Part shown: positions 15,001 to 64,000 of the stretch, one piece after another | How the letters are laid out: each line of letters opens with the position of its first letter | Numbering within the stretch: position 1 is the first letter of the stretch | NCBI RefSeq assembly: GCF_050320075.1 | Contig: NZ_CP190018.1 | Reading direction: 5' to 3' (one strand) | Length of the DNA stretch: 64,000 nucleotides | From: Escherichia coli | GTDB lineage: Bacteria; Pseudomonadota; Gammaproteobacteria; Enterobacterales; Enterobacteriaceae | Translations under genes and position numbers: made by a program | Notes under the pieces: generated by a model | Seen by the model: the letters and a program-made list of their open reading frames with translations, nothing else | Database searches by the model: none | What the model was told of the DNA's origin: nothing

Positions 15001-16911
15001 CATCGCGGCGGCAGGTACCGTCAGACTCCAGGAGCCATCAGCCTGCACGGTAGTGGTAAAACTCTGTCCAGCCAGGGTTACTGTGACGGTTTGTCCTGTC
15101 TCGGCCTGTTGAGTGCTACCGGTAAGGGTCAGTGGCGCACCTTTTTCTGCGCCACTGATAATGTCATCGCCGGAGACGGTGTTAATGGTGATTAACGGAG
15201 AAACACCGACCAGCGTGATTGCTCGAGACGCCGCGCCGGTATTTCCTGCAGTATCTGTCACGGTGACGAAAATCGTATTGGCTCCGCGATCCAGCGTGCG
15301 GGTTACCGCTGGGTCCAGCGCCACATTCCAGCTGCCATCTGCCAGCACAATGCCCGTCAGGACATGAGTGCCCAATTTCACCGTTACCGTATCGCCAGGA
15401 GAAGCACCGCTGACTTGTCCGGAGATGATCTGCGCGACGGCCTGCTCAGCATTATTAAGAATATCGTCGCCCGCTACGGTATTAACACTGACCACGGGTG
15501 CTGAGGTATCTACCGTGAAATTCGCGCTGTGGCTGGTGCTGTTCCCTGCCCGATCGCTGACACTGGCATTGACAGCGTAATTACCCTCCGCCAGCGCCTG
15601 GACTTCCGTGGCAGGCAGCGTCACTTGCCAGGTTCCGTCGCTACCGACGGTTGCTGTATGGCTTTTCCCGTTGACGGTCAGTGTTACGGTTTGCCCCGCT
15701 TCTGCATTCGACGTGCCGCTCAGTACCAGCGCGACGTTATGTTCCGCAGCACTGATGATGTTGTCCTGAGCGATGGTGTTGATGGCAAGCGTTGGCGGTT
15801 GGGTATCGACCGTTAGCAGTTGCACGCCGGTGACGGTATTGCCTGTGGCGTCTTTCCCGCTGACCAGCACTGCCTGATTCCCTTCGCCTAACGCCTGCGC
15901 ATCGGCGGTCGGTACCTGCACGCTCCAGGCACCGTTAGCGCCTACGCTGGTGGTGTAGGTTTTGCCGTTTAGCGTAACGGTGAGTTCTGTTCCCTGTGCC
16001 AGATGACTACTGGTGCCAGAAAGCGTAAACCCGGCGGCCTGTTCGCTGGCGTTAATAATGTTATCGCCTGCGGTGGTGGCAACCTGCACGCTGGCCTGAC
16101 TATTGTCGATGGTTAACGTTATCGAACCGGCGTCAGTGATGGTACTGCCGACGATTTGCACCACTGACCAGGTATGTTCGCCCGCGCTTTGCGTGGGCAA
16201 ATCGACGCTCCAGCGTCCATCGCTACCGACCTGAGTACTGGCGATGGTGTCACCATTGCTGTCTTTAATCTGGATGGTCGCCCCCGCCTGCCCGCTGCCG
16301 CTAAAGGTTGGCGTAGTGTCATCGGTGGTATCGTTGGCGGAAAGAATACCGCGTTGATCGCCCTGATTATCGGTTACCAAAAACGATGGCGTGGCGTTGC
16401 CGGGTTCGGCTGGCGGTGGGTTGTTAACCACTTCAGTTTTTGAGTCATCATCGCCACCGCTTGCCAGTAAAGCGCCAAGCGCGCCGCCACCTACCGCCGC
16501 CCCCGCCAGCCATCCCCACGGGAAAGCCGTCGTCTGGCCGACGATATCAAGGTACGGCGCAATGCTTTCAATTGCGGTGGTCTGAGCGGTCAGCTCCACG
16601 GGCGCTAATCCACCTGCCGCGGTATCGGCAAATGTTACGTGGGTCAGTTGTTGACCATCGACAAACACCAGTTCGGATTGTTCGCTGGTATTTGCCGCTT
16701 GCAGGAAATAACCGTTGCAGCGGATCACCGTGCCGTCCTGCATATAGATCAACAAGTCATTTCCGTCACGAACATAACGCGCAACGGCAGATGCCTGAGC
16801 ATGAACCTGCACCACAGAGGGCTCATAAATGACAACCGTAACGTCGCCAGGATTGATCAGCGTTTGTTTGACGGATGTTTTTCGCGAAATAACATCAATA
16901 ATCAGGCTCAT
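1..16911 (-). CDS. Giant repetitive surface adhesin, probable type I secretion substrate (BapA/LapA-like, Ig-like tandem repeats); 5' end in window, 3' end beyond window start (partial, 5,637 codons in window)
   Basis: ATG at 16911-16909 with AGGAA about 8 nt upstream and an in-frame TAA 11 codons further upstream. Window positions 1-3 are in frame, and no minus-strand ORF ending inside 1-16911 is reported in this frame. My translation of the first ~600 codons gives an N-terminal module (MSLIIDVISRK...), a hydrophobic Gly/Ala stretch, then repeated ~100-aa units of the type VDTxxPxxxINTxAGDxIxxAxE...G.TVTxTLNG...DG.W. Plus-strand ORFs across the region are short low-complexity antisense shadows. 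Confidence 0.8.
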   Translation of the reverse strand, partial: MSLIIDVISRKTSVKQTLINPGDVTVVIYEPSVVQVHAQASAVARYVRDGNDLLIYMQDGTVIRCNGYFLQAANTSEQSELVFVDGQQLTHVTFADTAAGGLAPVELTAQTTAIESIAPYLDIVGQTTAFPWGWLAGAAVGGGALGALLASGGDDDSKTEVVNNPPPAEPGNATPSFLVTDNQGDQRGILSANDTTDDTTPTFSGSGQAGATIQIKDSNGDTIASTQVGSDGRWSVDLPTQSAGEHTWSVVQIVGSTITDAGSITLTIDNSQASVQVATTAGDNIINASEQAAGFTLSGTSSHLAQGTELTVTLNGKTYTTSVGANGAWSVQVPTADAQALGEGNQAVLVSGKDATGNTVTGVQLLTVDTQPPTLAINTIAQDNIISAAEHNVALVLSGTSNAEAGQTVTLTVNGKSHTATVGSDGTWQVTLPATEVQALAEGNYAVNASVSDRAGNSTSHSANFTVDTSAPVVSVNTVAGDDILNNAEQAVAQIISGQVSGASPGDTVTVKLGTHVLTGIVLADGSWNVALDPAVTRTLDRGANTIFVTVTDTAGNTGAASRAITLVGVSPLITINTVSGDDIISGAEKGAPLTLTGSTQQAETGQTVTVTLAGQSFTTTVQADGSWSLTVPAAAMGNLPDGAVAITASVTDLSGNTGNTSRTITVDSQAPALSIDPLTADNIINAAESGQDLPITGTTDAQPGQTVTVTLNGQTYQGVVQPDGTWSVTVPAANVGALADGNATVTASVNDIAGNPTSVSRVALVDATPPVVTINPVATDNVINTPEHTQAQIISGTVTGAQAGDIVTVTLNNVDYTTVVDGSGNWSLGVPASVVSGLVDGSYPINVSVTDRAGNTGSQSLTVTVNTAAPLIGINSIAGDDVINASEKGADLQITGTSDQPVNTAITVTLNGQNYTTTTDASGNWSVTVPASAVTALGQANYTVTAAVTSNIGNSNTASHNVLVDSALPGVTINPVATDDIINAAEAGVAQTISGQVTGAEDGDTVTITLGGNTYTATVGSNFTWSVSVPAADIQALGNGDLTVSASVTNQNGNTGSGTRDITIDANLPGLRVDTVAGDDVVNIIEHGQALVVTGSSSGLAEGTPLTVTINNVEYTTAVQADGSWSVGVTAAQVSTWPAGTVNIAVSGESSAGNSVSITHPVTVDLTPAAIAINTIATDDVINAAEKGADLTLSGTTTNVEPGQTVTVTFGGKNYTASVASDGSWTATLPAADLTALPEGSASAQASVSNINGNSASAVHNYSVDSSAPTIIINTVASDNIVNASEADAGVTVSGSTTAEAGQIVTVTLNSPTVQTYQATVQADGSWSINIPAADLEALTDGSHTLTATVNDKAGNPASTTHNLAVDLTVPVLTINTIAGDDIINAAEHGQALVISGSSTGGEAGDVVTVTLNSKTYTTTLDASGNWSVGVPAADVTALGSGPQTVMATVTDAAGNSDSETHTVTVNLTAPTIGINTIATDDIINATEKGADLQISGTSNQPAGTTITVTLNGQNYTATTDASGNWSTTVPASAVGALGEASYTVTANVTDSAGNSNSASHNVQVNTALPGVTINPVASDDIINAAESGVAQTISGQVTGATAGDTVTVTLGGKTYTATVQGNLSWSVDVPAADIQAIGNGDLTVNASVTNGVGNTGSGSRDITIDANLPGLRVDTVAGDDVVNSIEHGQALVITGSSSGLAAGAALTVVINNVTYGATVLADGTWSLGVPAADVGNWPAGTVNITVSGTNTAGTTTTITHPVTVDLAAVAISINTVSGDDVINAAEKSADLTLSGSTSGVEAGQTVTVTFGGKTYTATVAGDGSWTTTVPAADLSALRDGDATVQASVSTINGNTASATHAYSVDATAPTLAINTIATDDILNAAEAGNPLTISGSSNAEAGQTVTVTLNGVTYTGTVQADGSWSVSVPTADLSNLTASPYTVSASVNDKAGNPATATHGLAVDLTVPVLTINTVSGDDIINAAEHGQALVISGSSTGGEAGDVITVTLNSKTYTTTLDASGNWSVGVPAADVTALGSGPQTITATITDIAGNSDDASRTVTVNLTAPTIGINTIASDDVINATEKSADLQITGTSNQPAGTTITVTLNGQNYTATTDSSGNWSATVPASAVSALGEASYTVTANVTDSAGNSNSASHNVLVNSALPAVTINAVATDDIINAAESGNAQTISGQVTGAAAGDTVTVTLGGNTYTATVQANLSWSVSVPAADIQAIGNGSLTVNASVTNVVGNTGNGSRDITIDANLPGLRVDTVAGDDVINSIEHNQALVITGSSSGLTAGTALTVEINNVTYGATVLADGTWSLGIPAADVSNWPAGTVDITVSGTNSAGTTSTITHPVTVDLAGVAITINTLSGDDVINAVEKGETLVVSGSTSGVEAGQTVTVTFGGKNYTTTVESNGSWTVNVPPADLAALPDGAGNVQASVSNINGNSAQADRAYSVDATAPLVTINTIASDDILNVSEAGAGITISGTTTAQVGQTLTVTLNNNTYQTTVQADGTWSVNVPATDLSGLTASSYTVTATVSDKAGNPASADHALAVDVTAPDLTINTVAGDDIINAIEHGQALVVSGTSTGAAAGDVVTVTLNGKNYTTTLDASGNWTVGIPAADVTALATGSQTITASLSDRAGNSDSTTHNVTVDLSGPTLTISTVSDDDIINSTEKTQDLTISGGSSGLATGTTVTVMLNGLAYSATTDSSGNWSVTVPASAVGALGEAVYQISASATDSAGNNGSTTHTVNVESLLPGVIINTVAGDDIINAAEIAVAQTISGQVTGTAVAGNTVIVTIGGNQYTATVQPDLSWSVSVPANVLQALGNGELTISASVTNSANNTGTATHDIVIDANLPGLRVDTVAGDDVINSIEHTQALVITGSGSGLAAGAALTVVINSVTYGATVLADGTWSVGVPAADVTNWPAGTVNIAVSGTNTAGTTTSISHPVTVDLAAVAITINTLSTDDVINAAEKGSDLQLSGTTSDVEAGQTITVIFGGKSYTTTVAAGGTWGLTIPAADLATLPDGAANVQASVSNVAGNSAQATHAYSVDATAPSVTINTIASDDILNAAEAGSALTISGTSTAEAGQTVTVTLNGVNYSGNVQADGSWSVSVPTGDLANLTASPYTVSAAVSDKAGNPASATHNLTVDLAAPVVTINTVAGDDIINATEHAQAQIISGSATGATTGNTVSVTIGTTTYTTVLDANGNWSIGVPASVISALAQGDVTITATVTDSAGNSGTASHTVTVALGAPVLAINTIAVDDIINATEKGADLAISGSSNQPAGTQITVTLNGQNYTTTADASGNWSVTVPASRVSALGEATYTVTAAATDSDGNSGSASHNVQVNTALPGVTINVVATDDIINAAEAGVDQTISGQVTGATAGDTVTVTLGGATYTATVQANLSWSVDVPAAALQALGNGELTISASVTNSVGNTGNGTREITIDANLPGLRVDTVAGDDVVNIIEHGQALVITGSSSGLATDSNVTLTINGQTYVAAVLADGSWSVGVPAADVSAWPAGTVTITASGSTTAGNPVSVTHPVTVDLTAVAVSINAITADDVINAAEKGAALTLSGSTSGVEAGQTVTVTFGGKTYTASVAANGSWSTSVPAADMAALRNGDASAQASVSNVNGNNATTTHAYSVDASVPTVTINTIAGDDILNAAEAGAALTITGSSTAEAGQTVTVTLNGANYTGTVQTDGSWSISVPPADLSALTASNYTVSAAVSDKAGNPASVNHNLTVDTSVPVVTINTVAGDDVINATEHAQAQIISGSATGAATGSTVTVTIGTNTFTTVLDASGNWSVGVPASVVSALANGTVTINASVTDAAGNSGSATHQVTVNTGLPSITFNAISGDNVLNADEKGQPLTISGSSTGLATGAQVTVTLNGHNYSATTDAAGNWTLTVPVSDLAALGQANYIVSASATSAAGNTASSQANLLVDSGLPGVTINTVAGDDIINAAEAGAAQTISGVVTRAAAGDTVTVTLGGNTYTAQVQADLSWSVSVPAADLQALGNGDLTITASVTNANGNTGSGTRDITIDANLPGLRVDTVAGDDIVNSIEHGQALVITGGSSGLNAGVPLTITINGTAYSATVQADGSWSVGIPAANVSAWPAGALTVEVDGQSSAGNPVGVSHPFTVDLTAVAISISTVASDDVINAAEKGTNLTLSGSTSGIESGQTVTVTFGGKTYTASVAANGSWSVNVPAADLAILPDGAANVQASVSSASGNSASATHAYSVDASAPTLTINTIASDDILNATEAGSPLIISGTSTAETGQTVTVTLNGATYSGNVQADGSWSVSVPPSALGALSASNYTVSATVNDKAGNPGSASHNLAVDTTAPVLTINTVVGDDIINDAEHAQALVISGTSTGGEAGDVVSVVLNGKTYTTTLDASGNWSVGVPAADVAALGSGAQTITASVSDRAGNSDDASRTVTVSLTAPVISINTIAGDDVINATEKGSDLALSGISDQPAGTAITVTLNGQNYSATTDSSGNWSVTVPASAVSALGEASYSVTASVTNAQGNSSTASHNVQVNTALPGVTINPVTTDDIINAAEAGSAQTISGQVTGAAAGSTVTVELGGKTYTATVQADLSWNVSVPAADWQALGNGELTVNASVTNAVGNTGSGTRDITIDASLPGLRVDTVAGDDVVNIIEHSQAQVITGSSSGFAAGTALTVVINNQTYAATVLANGSWSVGVPATDVSNWPAGTLNITVSGANSAGTQTSITHPLTVDLTTVAVSINSITSDDVINAAEKGAALTLSGSTSGVEAGQTVTITFGGKTYTTTVAANGSWSTTVPAVDMATLRDGDASAQVRVTNVNGNSATATHEYSVDSAAPTVTINTIASDNIINASEAAAGVTVSGTSTAETGQTLTVTLNGTNYQTTVQADGSWSLTLPASDLTALANNGYTLTASVSDLAGNPGSASKGVTVDTTAPVISFNTVAGDDVINNVEHTQAQIISGTATGAVAGDRLVVTIAGQQYVTSTDASGNWSVGVPASVISGLADGTVTISATITDSAGNSSTQTHNVQVNTAAVSLSVSTISGDNIINAAEAGSALTLSGTGTNFAAGTVVTVLLNGKGYSATIQSNGSWSVNVPAADVAALSDGTSYTVSASAQDSAGNSATASRSVAVDLTAPVISINTVSTDDRLNAAEQQQPLTLNGSTSAEVGQTVTVTFGGKTYTATVAANGTWALNVPAADLAALGQGAQTITASVNDRAGNPGQTTHALTVDTVAPTVTIATVAGDDIINNAEQLAGQTISGTTTAEVGQTVTVTFNGQSWTATVGSGGSWSVFIPAQQFAGLSDGSYTISATVSDQAGNPGSASRGVTLNGDVPSVTINTFAGDDVVNAAEHGSSLVISGTTTAPVGQTLTLTLNGKTYTTTVQTGGSWSYTLGSVDVTALADGNAYVINASVSNAIGNTGSSNHTITVDLSAPAMGINIDSLQADTGLSSSDFITSVSPVVVNGSLTAALASNETAQISIDGGVTWTTLTVTGTTWRYNDSRTLTDGSYLYQVRVIDAAGNVGATDSQNVVIDTIAPDPAVKTIAINAITTDTGLITNDFVTSDTTLAVSGTLGAALSSGEFAQISIDGGTTWQNLSVSGLTWTYLDG
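300..16200 (-). repeat. Intragenic tandem repeat array: ~300-bp (about 100-aa) Ig-like units organised in ~1.8-kb super-repeats
   Basis: Recurring motifs at regular spacing: ctccagcttaaat near 3050, 4850, 6645, 8440, 10240, 12040 (and a variant near 13840); gttttgccgccaaaggtgacggtgac-like near 1291, 2489, 4276, 6076, 7871, 9671, 11471, 13271. Antisense shadow ORFs (MPPKVTVTVCP...) recur at 2489, 6080, 7874, 9674. Array bounds are approximate. Confidence 0.8.
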
Positions 16912-17019
16912 AATGGCATTCCTGATAAATGGCGCACATCCTTAGCGAGTCCATTTATCTAAATAAGACAAAGGTAATCACTCAACAACGATGCATACCT
17001 GATATTAATAATGGCAGGA

Positions 17020-24135: not shown

Positions 24136-24930
24136 ATGGATCTGTTGTACCGGGTAAAAACGCTTTGGGCCGCGCTGCGCGGTAATCATTACACCTGGCC
24201 TGCTATCGATATCTCTCTTCCCGGCAATCGCCATTTTCATCTGATTGGCAGTATTCATATGGGCAGCCACGATATGGCTCCCCTGCCCACCCGTTTGCTC
24301 AAAAAGCTCAAAAACGCCGATGCGCTGATCGTCGAGGCGGATGTTTCCACCAGCGATACGCCTTTTGCTAATTTGCCTGCCTGCGAGGCGCTGGAAGAGC
24401 GCATTAGCGAGGAGCAACTCCAAAACCTGCAGCACATTAGCCAGGAGATGGGCATTTCTACCTCACTCTTTTCTACCCAACCGCTGTGGCAAATCGCGAT
24501 GGTTCTTCAGGCGACGCAGGCACAAAAACTGGGGCTGCGGGCAGAATACGGTATCGATTACCAGCTATTGCAGGCGGCGAAGCAACAACATAAACCCGTG
24601 ATTGAACTGGAAGGGGCTGAAAACCAGATTGCCATGTTGCTCCAGCTCCCTGACAACGGACTGGCACTGCTGGACGATACGCTGACCCACTGGCACACCA
24701 ATGCACGGTTGCTGCAACAAATGATGAGCTGGTGGCTGAATGCGCCGCCGCAAAATAATGAAATAACGCTGCCTAATACGTTCAGTCAATCGCTGTACGA
24801 TGTGCTGATGCATCAGCGAAATCTCGCCTGGCGGGACAAATTATGCGCCATGCCGCCGGGGCGCTATGTGGTCGCAGTCGGTGCACTACACCTGTATGGA
24901 GAAGGGAATTTGTCGCAGATGTTGCGCTAA
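24136..24930 (+). CDS. ybaP: TraB/GumN-family protein YbaP
   Basis: 264-aa ORF, ATG at 24136 with GGAGG upstream. Confidence 0.85.
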   Translation: MDLLYRVKTLWAALRGNHYTWPAIDISLPGNRHFHLIGSIHMGSHDMAPLPTRLLKKLKNADALIVEADVSTSDTPFANLPACEALEERISEEQLQNLQHISQEMGISTSLFSTQPLWQIAMVLQATQAQKLGLRAEYGIDYQLLQAAKQQHKPVIELEGAENQIAMLLQLPDNGLALLDDTLTHWHTNARLLQQMMSWWLNAPPQNNEITLPNTFSQSLYDVLMHQRNLAWRDKLCAMPPGRYVVAVGALHLYGEGNLSQMLR

Positions 24931-25012
24931 AAAAATGGCCAATATCGCTATTGGCCCGTCAAAGAGGAATTTCATTTTTTTATTATTATGCCGTCACTTT
25001 AAGCGACGGTGT
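24929..25012 (-). ncRNA. chiX: ChiX (MicM/SroB) small regulatory RNA
   Basis: Minus-strand sequence ACACCGTCGCTTAAAGTGACGGCATAATAATAAAAAAATGAAATTCCTCTTTGACGGGCCAATAGCGATATTGGCCATTTTTT matches the ChiX sequence as I recall it, including the terminator hairpin (ggccaata/tattggcc) and U-run; lies between ybaP and ybaK. Confidence 0.85.
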
Positions 25013-30654: not shown

Positions 30655-30689
30655 ACGGTGGTTGCCGGATAATAGGCGCGGATATGTAG

Positions 30690-30772
30690 GCCTGATAAGA
30701 CGCGCCAGCGTCGCATCAGGCATCGAGAGCCAAATGCCAGATGCGGCGTGAACGCCTTATCTGGCCTACGAA
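30690..30772. repeat. REP/BIME element (two inverted REP copies)
   Basis: gtaggcctgataagacgcgccagcgtcgcatcaggca and tgccagatgcggcgtgaacgccttatctggcctac, inverted relative to each other, in the ybaL-gsk convergent spacer. Confidence 0.7.
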
Positions 30773-38085: not shown

Positions 38086-40017
38086 TCAAATGGGGCGGAT
38101 ACTTTCTTCATCCAGCTCCGCATCGAAGAACCGACGCAGGGTCTGAATATTATTATCCGCAATAATGGACTCGCGCGCCTGCGCAAGTTTTTCTTCGTAT
38201 ATCGCCTGACGCCATTCCAGCGGCGTACGCACCGCGGGATTATCATCTTCAACGATAGTCAGTTCAACCGTTGAACCTTTTAACATGCTCAACGCTTCAG
38301 CCAGTTTTTGCTGTGCGCCGCGGTTGTTCAAATGCCGCTGAGAGGAGCGCAAATGCAGACATACTGCGTTGTCGCTCTCCTCTTTCCAGGCATTTAACGC
38401 CACCTGTTCGACCAGTTTTGGTAGCGAAAGTTGACTCACCTGAGCCGCCCACGGGTCGCGCTCAATGGCTTCTGCCGCCAGCTTCGCCGCCAGTTCCGGC
38501 GTTTTTTCATGTTCCAGCGCTTTTTTCAGCGCCTTCGGCGTAGCGACCACTTCTTTTTGCTGCATCACTGGAGTGGTGGCCTTCCAGCGATACGCTTCTT
38601 TTTTGGCTGGCGCTTTTTCCAGCGCCGATGGCACCGGACGCGCCTGAACGCGATCGGTGACCGAAGCCAGTCTTTCCAGCGCAGCGTTATTCACCGGCCG
38701 CGCGCGGGTAGCGGCTGCCGGTTCACTCTTTTTTGCTTTGGTTGCTCCCTGCACGCGCTGCAACTGCTGGCGCGCCGCCAGCACCTGGCTGGTGGTTTCC
38801 GGGAGCGGTACAGTCGGTGCCTGCTGCGGCGCTGATTGCGGTTGCGGCGGCACCTGGGTTGGCGTCATTACTGCCGTTGGCGCGACGGGCGCAAAGGACT
38901 GGCGTGGCACTTCTGGCTCAGGCAGCGGCATACGCGGATGGAACGCCAGCGCGCGCAACAGCGTCATCTCAACGCCCATACGGCGGTCTGGCGCATACGG
39001 TAATTCTTTGCGACCAATCAACAGCGTCTGATAGTAAAGCTGAATATCCGTCGGCGGTATGGTGCGCGCCAGTTCACGCATCCGCAGCTCGATAGCGGCC
39101 ATGTCGTTGCCAAGTGCAGCAGGCGAAAGTTGTACCATCGCAATACGATGCAACAGGCCGAGCATTTCCACCAGCAACGCTTCCCACTCGATACCACGGG
39201 CAGCGGCTTCATTAATCAGTGCCATTACGCGCTCGCCGTTGGCCTCGATCATCGCTTCAACCAGCGACAGCGCCTGATCGTCGTCAAGCGTACCCAGCAT
39301 CGCACTGACCGCCTGAGTTGAAACCTGGCCGTCACCGCTGGCAATCGCCTGGTCGGTCAGACTTAAGGCATCTCGCAGGCTGCCTTCAGCGGCGCGTGCC
39401 AGCAATTGCAGCGCCCGCGGCTCGTGAGCGATATGTTCTTCGTTGAGGATGTGCTCAAGCTGATGGCGAATTTGCTCGACATCCAGCGCCTTGAGATGAA
39501 ATTGCAGACAACGTGACAAAATCGTCACCGGCAATTTCTGCGGATCGGTCGTCGCCAGCAGAAACTTAACGTGCTCTGGCGGCTCTTCAAGGGTTTTTAA
39601 CAGTGCGTTAAAGCTGTGGCGCGACAGCATATGCACTTCGTCGATCAGATAAACTTTGAAACGACCACGCGCCGGAGCGTACTGGACGTTATCCAGCAGG
39701 TCGCGAGTGTCTTCAACTTTAGTGCGCGAGGCGGCATCGATTTCAATCAGATCGACAAAGCGCCCCTGCTCGATTTCACGACAGTTATCGCACACGCCGC
39801 ACGGCGTCGCGGTAATGCCGGTTTCGCAGTTTAGCCCCTTCGCCAGCAGTCGGGCGATAGAGGTTTTTCCGACGCCACGGGTGCCGGAAAAAAGATAAGC
39901 ATGATGAATACGCCCTAACGACAAGCCGTTCGCCAGTGCGGTCAGCACATGTTCCTGGCCGACGACGTCAGCAAAGGTTTGTGGGCGCCATTTTCGGGCT
40001 AAGACCTGATAACTCAT
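38086..40017 (-). CDS. dnaX: DNA polymerase III subunits tau and gamma
   Basis: 643-aa ORF with AAA+ Walker A (GTRGVGKT); contains the frameshift site listed separately. Confidence 0.97.
   Translation of the reverse strand: MSYQVLARKWRPQTFADVVGQEHVLTALANGLSLGRIHHAYLFSGTRGVGKTSIARLLAKGLNCETGITATPCGVCDNCREIEQGRFVDLIEIDAASRTKVEDTRDLLDNVQYAPARGRFKVYLIDEVHMLSRHSFNALLKTLEEPPEHVKFLLATTDPQKLPVTILSRCLQFHLKALDVEQIRHQLEHILNEEHIAHEPRALQLLARAAEGSLRDALSLTDQAIASGDGQVSTQAVSAMLGTLDDDQALSLVEAMIEANGERVMALINEAAARGIEWEALLVEMLGLLHRIAMVQLSPAALGNDMAAIELRMRELARTIPPTDIQLYYQTLLIGRKELPYAPDRRMGVEMTLLRALAFHPRMPLPEPEVPRQSFAPVAPTAVMTPTQVPPQPQSAPQQAPTVPLPETTSQVLAARQQLQRVQGATKAKKSEPAAATRARPVNNAALERLASVTDRVQARPVPSALEKAPAKKEAYRWKATTPVMQQKEVVATPKALKKALEHEKTPELAAKLAAEAIERDPWAAQVSQLSLPKLVEQVALNAWKEESDNAVCLHLRSSQRHLNNRGAQQKLAEALSMLKGSTVELTIVEDDNPAVRTPLEWRQAIYEEKLAQARESIIADNNIQTLRRFFDAELDEESIRPI
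38690..38734 (-). other. dnaX programmed -1 ribosomal frameshift site (A AAA AAG heptamer plus downstream stem-loop) generating gamma
   Basis: Minus strand GCAAAAAAGAGTGAACCGGCAGCCGCTACCCGCGCGCGGCCGG; slippery heptamer at 38734-38728, an in-frame-after-shift UGA two codons later, and a GC-rich stem-loop immediately 3'. Encodes the ...KAKKSEPAAATRARPVN... segment. Confidence 0.85.
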
Positions 40018-55377: not shown

Positions 55378-55492
55378 GGGTGGGGGCCCTGCCAGCTACA
55401 TCCCGGCACACGCGTCATCTGCCTTGGCTGCTTCCTTCCGGACCTGACCTGGTAAACAGAGTAGCGTTGCGGGAGAACCAACAGAGCCCCCA
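55378..55492 (-). ncRNA. ffs: 4.5S RNA (signal recognition particle RNA)
   Basis: Minus strand reads GGGGGCTCTGTTGGTTCTCCCGCAACGCTACTCTGTTTACCAGGTCAGGTCCGGAAGGAAGCAGCCAAGGCAGATGACGCGTGTGCCGGGATGTAGCTGGCAGGGCCCCCACC, matching the 4.5S RNA including the conserved domain IV region; ends are +/- 2 nt. Confidence 0.9.
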
Positions 55493-59521: not shown

Positions 59522-63068
<3,547 letters not shown>

Positions 63069-63097
63069 GCGTTGTGTCCTGACCTGATTCTGGATAT

Positions 63098-63556
63098 TTA
63101 TTCGATGGGTAAAGAAGTGGTGTATTTAATCTGTTCCATCGCGAAGCTGGAAGTGACGTCCGACAGCCCCGGCACGCTGTTTACCAGGCGCTTATAAAAC
63201 TCGTCGTAGCGTTTCATGTCGGCAACCTGGACGCGCATCAGATAATCGTATTCACCAGCCATGCGCCAGAACCCCAGCACTTCTGGCATTTCGGTAACCA
63301 CCGTGACAAAGCGGCAATACCATTCGCTGCTGTGATGTTGCGTTTTTATCAGCACAAAGGCGGTCAGGCCGAGGCCTATTTTTTCCGGATCCAGCAGGGC
63401 GACTTTGCCGATAAGAATACCGTCGTCCTCCAGCCGTTTCAGACGCTTCCAGCAGGGGGTAGTTGTCAGATTAACGGCTTCAGCCAGTGCCTGCAAAGAG
63501 AGGGTGCAATCCTGCTGTAGTAAGGCCAGCAGCTTACGGTCAATTTTATCTAACAT
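63098..63556 (-). CDS. decR: AsnC/Lrp-family transcriptional regulator (YbaO/DecR)
   Basis: 152-aa product starting [48 protein letters not shown]; internal ATG at 63556. Confidence 0.85.
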
Positions 63557-63677
63557 AGCCCTTCCACGGAGAATTTTTTTCTCTTTTAATTCTATTTTAA
63601 AGGTGAAATCGCGACAATTTATTCTGTGCGGTTTAAACACCACGGCACAAAATGACAAATTCAACGCAAATAAATAT

Positions 63678-64000
63678 CCTCCGGCATAGCCGGAGGTTTT
63701 TCAAATGCGCCTGTAAGGCTCTGTTACCAGCCGCGCCCTAACAGGCGCATACGATCTGACATTTGCATTCAACTTCGTTACTTACGGCCCGTAAACGGGC
63801 TGCCCGGATATGGAATCGATAACTGCTCCCCCATTTTATCCTCTTCAAGCTGGTGCTTTATGTAGTCCTGTATCTTCGCCGTGTTCTTACCCACCGTATC
63901 GACATAGTACCCTCGGCACCAGAACTCCCTGTTTCTGTATTTGAATTTCAAATCCCCAAACTGCTCGTAAAGCATCAGACTGCTTTTCCCTTTCAGATAT
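63678..64000 (-). mobile_element. Partial IS200-like insertion sequence (one end plus 3' part of tnpA)
   Basis: tnpA fragment plus flanking structured sequence: perfect hairpin cctccggc-ata-gccggagg with T-run (63678-63701) and an 8-bp inverted repeat gcgcctgt...acaggcgc (63706-63747). The exact IS terminus was not determined. Confidence 0.5.
63778..64000 (-). CDS. tnpA: IS200-family (Y1/HUH) transposase TnpA, C-terminal part only (5' end beyond window end)
   Basis: Reported ORF MLYEQFGDLKFKYRNREFWCRGYYVDTVGKNTAKIQDYIKHQLEEDKMGEQLSIPYPGSPFTGRK matches the C-terminal third of IS200 TnpA as I recall it; the reading frame continues upstream past position 64000. Confidence 0.75.
   Translation of the reverse strand, partial: YLKGKSSLMLYEQFGDLKFKYRNREFWCRGYYVDTVGKNTAKIQDYIKHQLEEDKMGEQLSIPYPGSPFTGRK

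Follow-up and report, generated by a model that had tools for sequence, protein, structure and literature searches.

An IS200C-like insertion sequence of the IS200 group in the terminator tail of cof, upstream of decR, in Escherichia coli

The window, as we call the whole stretch of 64,000 nucleotides that was analysed, ends with three genes on the minus strand, mdlB (59522-61417), mdlA (61296-63068) and decR (also ybaO or cyuR, 63098-63556), followed by 332 bp from the right-hand end of an insertion sequence of the IS200 group, an IS200C-like variant (63669-64000, minus strand), which was delimited by comparing the filled site with the empty site of K-12. The decR gene is downstream of the insertion; it encodes a 152-residue regulator of the AsnC/Lrp family (Pfam AsnC_trans_reg, 2e-21; HTH_24, 3.5e-17), which RefSeq names DecR (WP_000884589.1) in an identical genome. 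The part of the element inside the window contains the 3' part of tnpA (63778-64000, minus strand), namely residues 80-152 with the catalytic Tyr125 in DYIKHQ and the stop codon (63778-63780); the HUH motif lies beyond the window. The genome of CFSAN061763 is 100% identical to window 63000-64000. At this locus (L001; window coordinate equals L001 coordinate + 58999), the order is mdlA-decR-tnpA-cof, the element is of full length and tnpA is intact, with 459 nt. The element separates cof from decR, and all three point in the same direction.

Elsewhere in the window, positions 1-17000 are inside one giant gene, for which identical genomes have the annotation siiEA (BapA-related adhesin). Only 536 of 5,426 genomes contain 80% or more of this stretch, and 48 have it at 99% identity or more. 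Four Rfam matches score above gathering, all on the minus strand: the DnaX frameshift element (38689-38753), sroB (24929-25012), naRNA4 (30689-30766) and the SRP RNA (55387-55483). They fit a K-12-like acrAB-dnaX-ffs-amtB-mdlAB region.

The K-12 cof-decR spacer is free of the insertion. In cof sense, it reads ...caccgggcaattgcccgg-TTTTTTTT-gcgttgaatttg..., the cof intrinsic terminator being followed by eight T. At the empty site of K-12, ccgggcaattgcccgg-T8 is followed by gcgttgaa; at the filled site, T7 is followed by 709 bp, T3 and then gcgttgaa. The 709-bp core reads GTGCACAG...GGAGGATATTTA, and the net gain at cof-decR is 711 bp. The same pattern of 709 bp plus two T was observed relative to K-12 at yfeY-yfeX, araE-ygeA and ydcH-rimL, making four comparisons in total. 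The two extra T are assignable to either end; by analogy with IS608, we place them at the right end (...ATATTTATT), which would mean no target duplication. The gain fits a 711-bp element ending in TT that was inserted after a T-run; a 2-bp TT duplication is a formal alternative. On the decR side, the element ends at 63669 if its length is taken as 711 bp, and at 63671 if only the 709-bp core is counted. The preliminary description, which had proposed a comparison with strains lacking the insertion, correctly put the element end just upstream of decR, but its distance of 120-200 bp is replaced by 113-115 bp from the decR ATG at 63556. It had also proposed alignment to IS200 copies; with EC958 IS200C, two Salmonella plasmid copies and Y. 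pestis IS1541A, this defined the exact terminus, the conserved block running from about TTGTGCAC to exactly ...CCTCCGGCTATGCCGGAGGATATTTATT.

On the other side, it is the T-tail of the intrinsic terminator of cof that received the insertion, and the left end of the element abuts that tail. In identical genomes the full element measures 709-711 bp and runs to about position 64379, past the window. Reconstructed past 64000, the window sequence would reach the element end at ...CTGTGCAC, followed by A7-CCGGGCAATTGCCCGG and then by cof.

Two hairpins are located at the right end. The subterminal one (63678-63696) has an 8-bp stem with seven G-C pairs and a 3-nt loop; it reads CCTCCGGC-ATA-GCCGGAGG, followed by TTTTT (63697-63701), or CCTCCGGC-TAT-GCCGGAGG in tnpA sense, and is terminator-like in both directions. 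It lies 9 nt from the tip and has no matches in shuffles of the window. Its earlier description as an IS200 subterminal structure agrees with its lack of a counterpart at the K-12 empty site and with its invariance in five elements from E. coli, Salmonella and Yersinia. By analogy with IS608, it is presumed to be the hairpin bound by TnpA. An A5 run read from the tnpA-sense strand, directly 5' of this hairpin (63697-63701, minus strand), is a candidate 'guide'; its pairing partner could be the T-rich TTATT at the right-end tip, much as the IS608 guide pairs with its cleavage site. The inner hairpin (63705-63750), identified by DNA folding, has a perfect 10-bp stem (ATGCGCCTGT / ACAGGCGCAT) and a 26-nt loop; the fold of 63660-63780 gave z = -4.9 on either strand. 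No covariation was found for the right-end hairpins in the five diverged copies, in which the inner stem shows changes to G-T pairs only. No further IS200 ends were found within the 64-kb window.

For window 63669-63702 (plus strand), Rfam gives a match of 28 bits to the terminator stem at the 3' end of Ysr202 (Yersinia sRNA 202), versus a gathering score of 315; this suggests that the Yersinia Ysr202 transcript ends at the right end of IS1541. This partial match and a chance match to snoU36a (E 0.5) were both rejected as family members. In the IS200 copy of Salmonella plasmid CP054717.1, a 65-bp insertion is present in the loop of the inner hairpin, both stem arms being kept; the left-end tip of this copy is diverged, with GTCTATGG in place of GTGCACAG.

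The left end, beyond the window, contains the hairpin CCCCCAGC-TAG-GCTGGGGG, which is preceded by AAAA (GTGCACAG-AAAA-CCCCC...). It matches Rfam STnc490 over its full length (1-124) with 143.9 bits, versus a gathering score of 56; this match is the IS200 5'UTR/art200 region described in PMC4513863, which also describes a bidirectional terminator at the left end of IS200 and a weak tnpA promoter. There are subterminal hairpins at both ends of the element, and the end sequences, GTGCAC... and ...ATATTTATT, do not form an inverted repeat.

Three sites that may control decR are intact between the IS tip and the gene, and differ from K-12 by single-base polymorphisms only. The first is a predicted sigma-70 promoter, TTGTCG-17-TAGAAT (63589-63617, minus strand; L001 4618-4590), from a consensus scan that found 2 promoter-like sites where 1.1 are expected. 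Overlapping its predicted -35 is the second, a match to the motif GAAwAAATTGTxGxxATTTsyCC published upstream of cyuR (PMC11408624). This CyuR/DecR operator motif, GAATAAATTGTCGCGATTTCACC (63602-63624, minus strand), has 1 mismatch and is the sole match in the 64-kb window, where 0 would be expected by chance. The third is a marbox-like sequence, ACGGCACAAAATGACAAAT (63642-63660, plus strand), which is separated from the IS tip by 8-10 bp and is a candidate for SoxS/MarA binding. Compared with what we take to be the marbox consensus, AYnGCACnnWnnRYYAAAY, it has a single mismatch; no other match occurs in 9 kb, and at least one match occurred in 32 of 200 shuffles. PMC11408624 reports that SoxS and MarA bind upstream of cyuR. 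A further promoter-like site that spans the junction, ATGACA-17-TATCCT (63652-63680, plus strand), was rejected; it is at chance level (2 versus 1.1 expected) and runs into the right-end terminator.

The preliminary description had suggested that the insertion alters decR promoter activity, an idea that gains nothing from the sequence, which still contains the predicted -35 and -10, the operator motif and the marbox-like site between the IS tip and decR. Regulation of decR(cyuR)-mdlAB could be altered by displacement of upstream DNA near the SoxS/MarA site, by blocking of read-through from cof or by outward tnpA transcription. The IS tip is close to the marbox-like site and ~87 bp upstream of the predicted transcription start, tnpA points toward decR, and cyuR-mdlAB is reported to be SoxS-dependent and autorepressed (PMC11408624). 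However, the K-12 cof terminator already parts cof from decR, and the IS has a known left-end bidirectional terminator and a weak promoter (PMC4513863). Moreover, a scan flags the right-end hairpin and the following ATATTTATTT as terminator-like toward decR, and the A8 tract is replaced by similarly A/T-rich DNA. We therefore consider a regulatory effect unlikely. The insertion is probably near-neutral for decR-mdlAB, because the decR control sites are retained, as far as consensus predictions of the promoter and marbox-like site go, and because the cof terminator is already upstream in K-12. Between cof and decR, the insertion would add the left-end bidirectional terminator and the terminator-like right-end hairpin. 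Since decR(cyuR)-mdlAB is linked to cysteine-dependent antibiotic tolerance, an effect in a pandemic clone would matter; the sequence gives no cause to expect one.

The identity of the element is given by its transposase. Window 63781-63999 (minus strand) is translated into 73 residues that match Pfam Y1_Tnp (PF01797, E 5.3e-10) at profile positions 72-121 of 121. The full 152-residue TnpA scores 143.9 bits with NCBIfam transpos_IS200 (NF033573), versus a cut-off of 55, and contains HIH at residues 61-63 in addition to Tyr125; only the Tyr is inside the window. Solved Y1 transposases such as IS608 TnpA (2a6m, E 2.6e-19) are homologous to it. The fragment and the full protein thus both confirm the IS200 Y1 transposase that had been noticed on the minus strand. 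The gene content is that of the IS200 group, with tnpA alone, without tnpB, as the single 459-nt CDS in 709-711 bp. RefSeq already annotates tnpA in an identical genome, under the pipeline name 'IS200/IS605 family' and not 'IS200C family'.

Might this copy be a dead remnant, either a solo right end or an inactive element, and not an autonomous IS? The preliminary description had called it partial; the window shows only the right third of the element, isolated right-end fragments that cover 20% of the query occur on many E. coli plasmids, and IS200 has been described as largely dormant. However, the genomes identical to the window have the whole element, with an intact 152-residue ORF, the HUH motif and the catalytic Tyr, and copies that are 100% identical to it are present at other loci in the same lineage. 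We therefore regard a remnant as very improbable. The term 'partial' applies to the window edge only, since the extension past 64000 that had been recommended earlier, made here by means of the identical genomes, yields a complete element that is not truncated there. The window itself holds only 332 bp, and we infer completeness in the source genome from those identical genomes. Taken as a whole, the best explanation, which we hold with high confidence, is that the window ends within a complete, autonomous IS200-group element that is IS200C-like and has tnpA only.

We give practically no credence to the proposals that the gene encodes a REP-associated tyrosine transposase (RAYT) or that the hairpin at 63678 is the native cof terminator: the weak match to the RAYT model (NF047646, 28.6 bits versus a cut-off of 80) is ruled out by the score of the IS200 model, the element being multicopy with ends of IS200 type, and the hairpin with its T-run, in spite of its terminator look, is missing from the K-12 empty site, where the real cof terminator is another hairpin (ccgggcaattgcccgg), which is on the far side of the element.

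Among the closest known elements is IS200C (an ISfinder name, used in RefSeq annotation), here that of E. coli EC958, which has the same length and organisation, an identical right-end tip and a conserved left-end hairpin, and also sits behind terminators. The two elements are 95.9% identical in nucleotides and 147/152 (96.7%) in TnpA; they differ by ~4% nucleotide divergence, and the variant in the window is found at 99% identity or more in only about 230 records. By what we take to be the ISfinder isoform criterion (roughly at least 95% DNA and/or at least 98% protein identity), assignment as an isoform of IS200C is borderline, with EC958 IS200C, not the ISfinder entry, as the reference. Plasmid copies of IS200 from Salmonella enterica, another host, are 91-94% identical to the window's element (6-9% divergence). 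Salmonella IS200 is ~707 bp long with one gene; PMC4513863 describes a terminator hairpin at its left end (nt 12-34), a stem-loop in the 5'UTR and the antisense RNA art200/STnc490. These left-end features, including the antisense RNA region, are matched here through STnc490. IS1541 of Yersinia pestis is 86.4% identical over its full length and is more diverged. Its right-end hairpin and tip are identical, and it also sits behind a hairpin and T6. In Yersinia, IS1541 has a much higher copy number, ~40 per genome on average (PMC4513863).

Like the present element, IS608 and ISDra2 have a homologous Y1 HUH TnpA and subterminal hairpins that are not inverted repeats. They insert 3' of a short specific sequence, and by this comparison the two extra T seen here may be read as part of the element (PMC5027513, PMC2806898). 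Different from it, they carry tnpB and target TTAC or TTGAT, whereas the target here would be a T-run, usually the tail of a terminator. Overall, the element is known and its site catalogued, and nothing points to a new kind of element or a new mechanism.

The distribution of the insertion was analyzed in 5,426 complete E. coli genomes. The junction (70 bp) is present in 138 of them, 136 of the window type and two CFT073 records. The window-type genomes include 28Eco12 and 266917_2, both of which belong to ST38 according to PMC6963479. A table in that paper lists an IS200C at 3939865..3940573 of strain 28Eco12, which is the same copy as that in the window and has therefore already been catalogued. 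In CFT073 (L021 and L022), a different IS200C variant with an IS200C-type TnpA occupies the same nucleotide (equivalent to window 63669) in the same orientation; 33 of 711 nt differ (95.4% identical), and its flanks differ from those of the window by 2.2% and 0.9%. The site is empty in Nissle 1917 (H105), which we take to be a close relative of CFT073. We read the window-type and CFT073 insertions as two independent events and the site as a hot spot.

The preliminary description had called IS200 insertion sites useful strain markers. The insertion does mark a lineage of E. coli that includes the ST38 clone, provided that the sequence of the element is considered; the site by itself does not mark a lineage, since the same nucleotide in CFT073 has an IS200C from an independent insertion. 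IS200-type sequences were found in 2,641 of the 5,426 genomes, at roughly 10,000 places; genomes with any copy have a median of 2 places. The three window-type genomes among the matches listed have 9-13 IS200-type places each, and copies at other loci of the same lineage are 100% identical to the decR copy over 701 bp, which indicates recent transposition. The element is thus neither low copy nor long dormant in this lineage, different from the general statement that IS200 is low in copy and rarely transposes.

All 16 IS200/IS1541 copies that we inspected have their left end directly 3' of a GC-rich hairpin with a T-rich tail of 6-9 nt. They comprise 13 E. coli sites, two Salmonella plasmids and Y. 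pestis pFra (loci including L001 5380-5404, L003-L006 and L010-L020). For most of them, the hairpin and tail are just downstream of a co-oriented gene and resemble its terminator. A T-run alone does not account for 16/16, because such a hairpin precedes only 18 of the 184 runs of at least five T in the 64-kb window and, outside long ORFs, 9 of 58 (10-16%). The preference for terminators could partly reflect the survival of harmless insertions, and not targeting. In the literature, IS1541 is placed between pheL and pheA in Yersinia.

How such sites might be reached is suggested by the IS200/IS605 family, whose members are described in the literature as transposing by single-strand 'peel and paste'; homology to IS608 TnpA argues that IS200 would likewise move as single-stranded DNA. 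Insertion would take place 3' of a T-rich target, with no bases added beyond the element (709-bp core and two T), and terminator tails, each a hairpin with a T-run, would be habitual landing sites. Each hairpin of IS608 has a short 'guide' on its 5' side, which pairs with the cleavage or target site. By analogy, the A-run beside the left-end hairpin may recognise the T-rich target; the AAAA (left) and AAAAA (right) before the hairpins could pair with the T-run target and the TTATT tip, respectively. We tentatively raise the possibility, which we consider less probable than its opposite, that elements of the IS200 group home actively to T-tails of intrinsic terminators, where such an A-run 'guide' would pair with the T-run. 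On the lagging-strand template, a host hairpin with its T-tail may mimic the right end of the element (GC hairpin and ATATTTATT). Active homing, if true, would explain why two IS200 variants are at the same nucleotide behind cof in unrelated lineages, and would make terminators a safe-harbour niche for the element. No explicit description of active homing of IS200 to terminators was found in the accessible literature; a preprint (2025-26) reports that terminator-like sequences are enriched upstream of IS200/IS605 elements, and the homing idea may be partly known.

The orientation of the insertions relative to replication was also compared, for four sites with K-12 coordinates. With oriC at about 3.9 Mb and the replication terminus at about 1.6 Mb, the cof (+), ydcH (+), yfeY (-) and araE (-) sites are all co-oriented with replication (4/4), which is not significant at n=4 and is confounded with the orientation of the terminators. 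Such co-orientation would put the tnpA-sense strand on the lagging-strand template. In 28Eco12, copies behind pqqU (-) and fdnI (+) (L012 and L013; 2.44 and 2.48 Mb) are in opposite orientations, 40 kb apart and near the terminus; one or both may be exceptions to the lagging-strand-template rule, unless the region is inverted relative to K-12. At another locus of this strain (L015, 28Eco12 3058143-3061429), two IS200C copies are 1.6 kb apart, next to icd and near iraM. Each is behind a near-identical hairpin (acgggcgt...acgcccgt and TGTTTTT), and it looks as if a duplicated icd 3' end with its terminator had been hit twice, or had been duplicated along with the IS.
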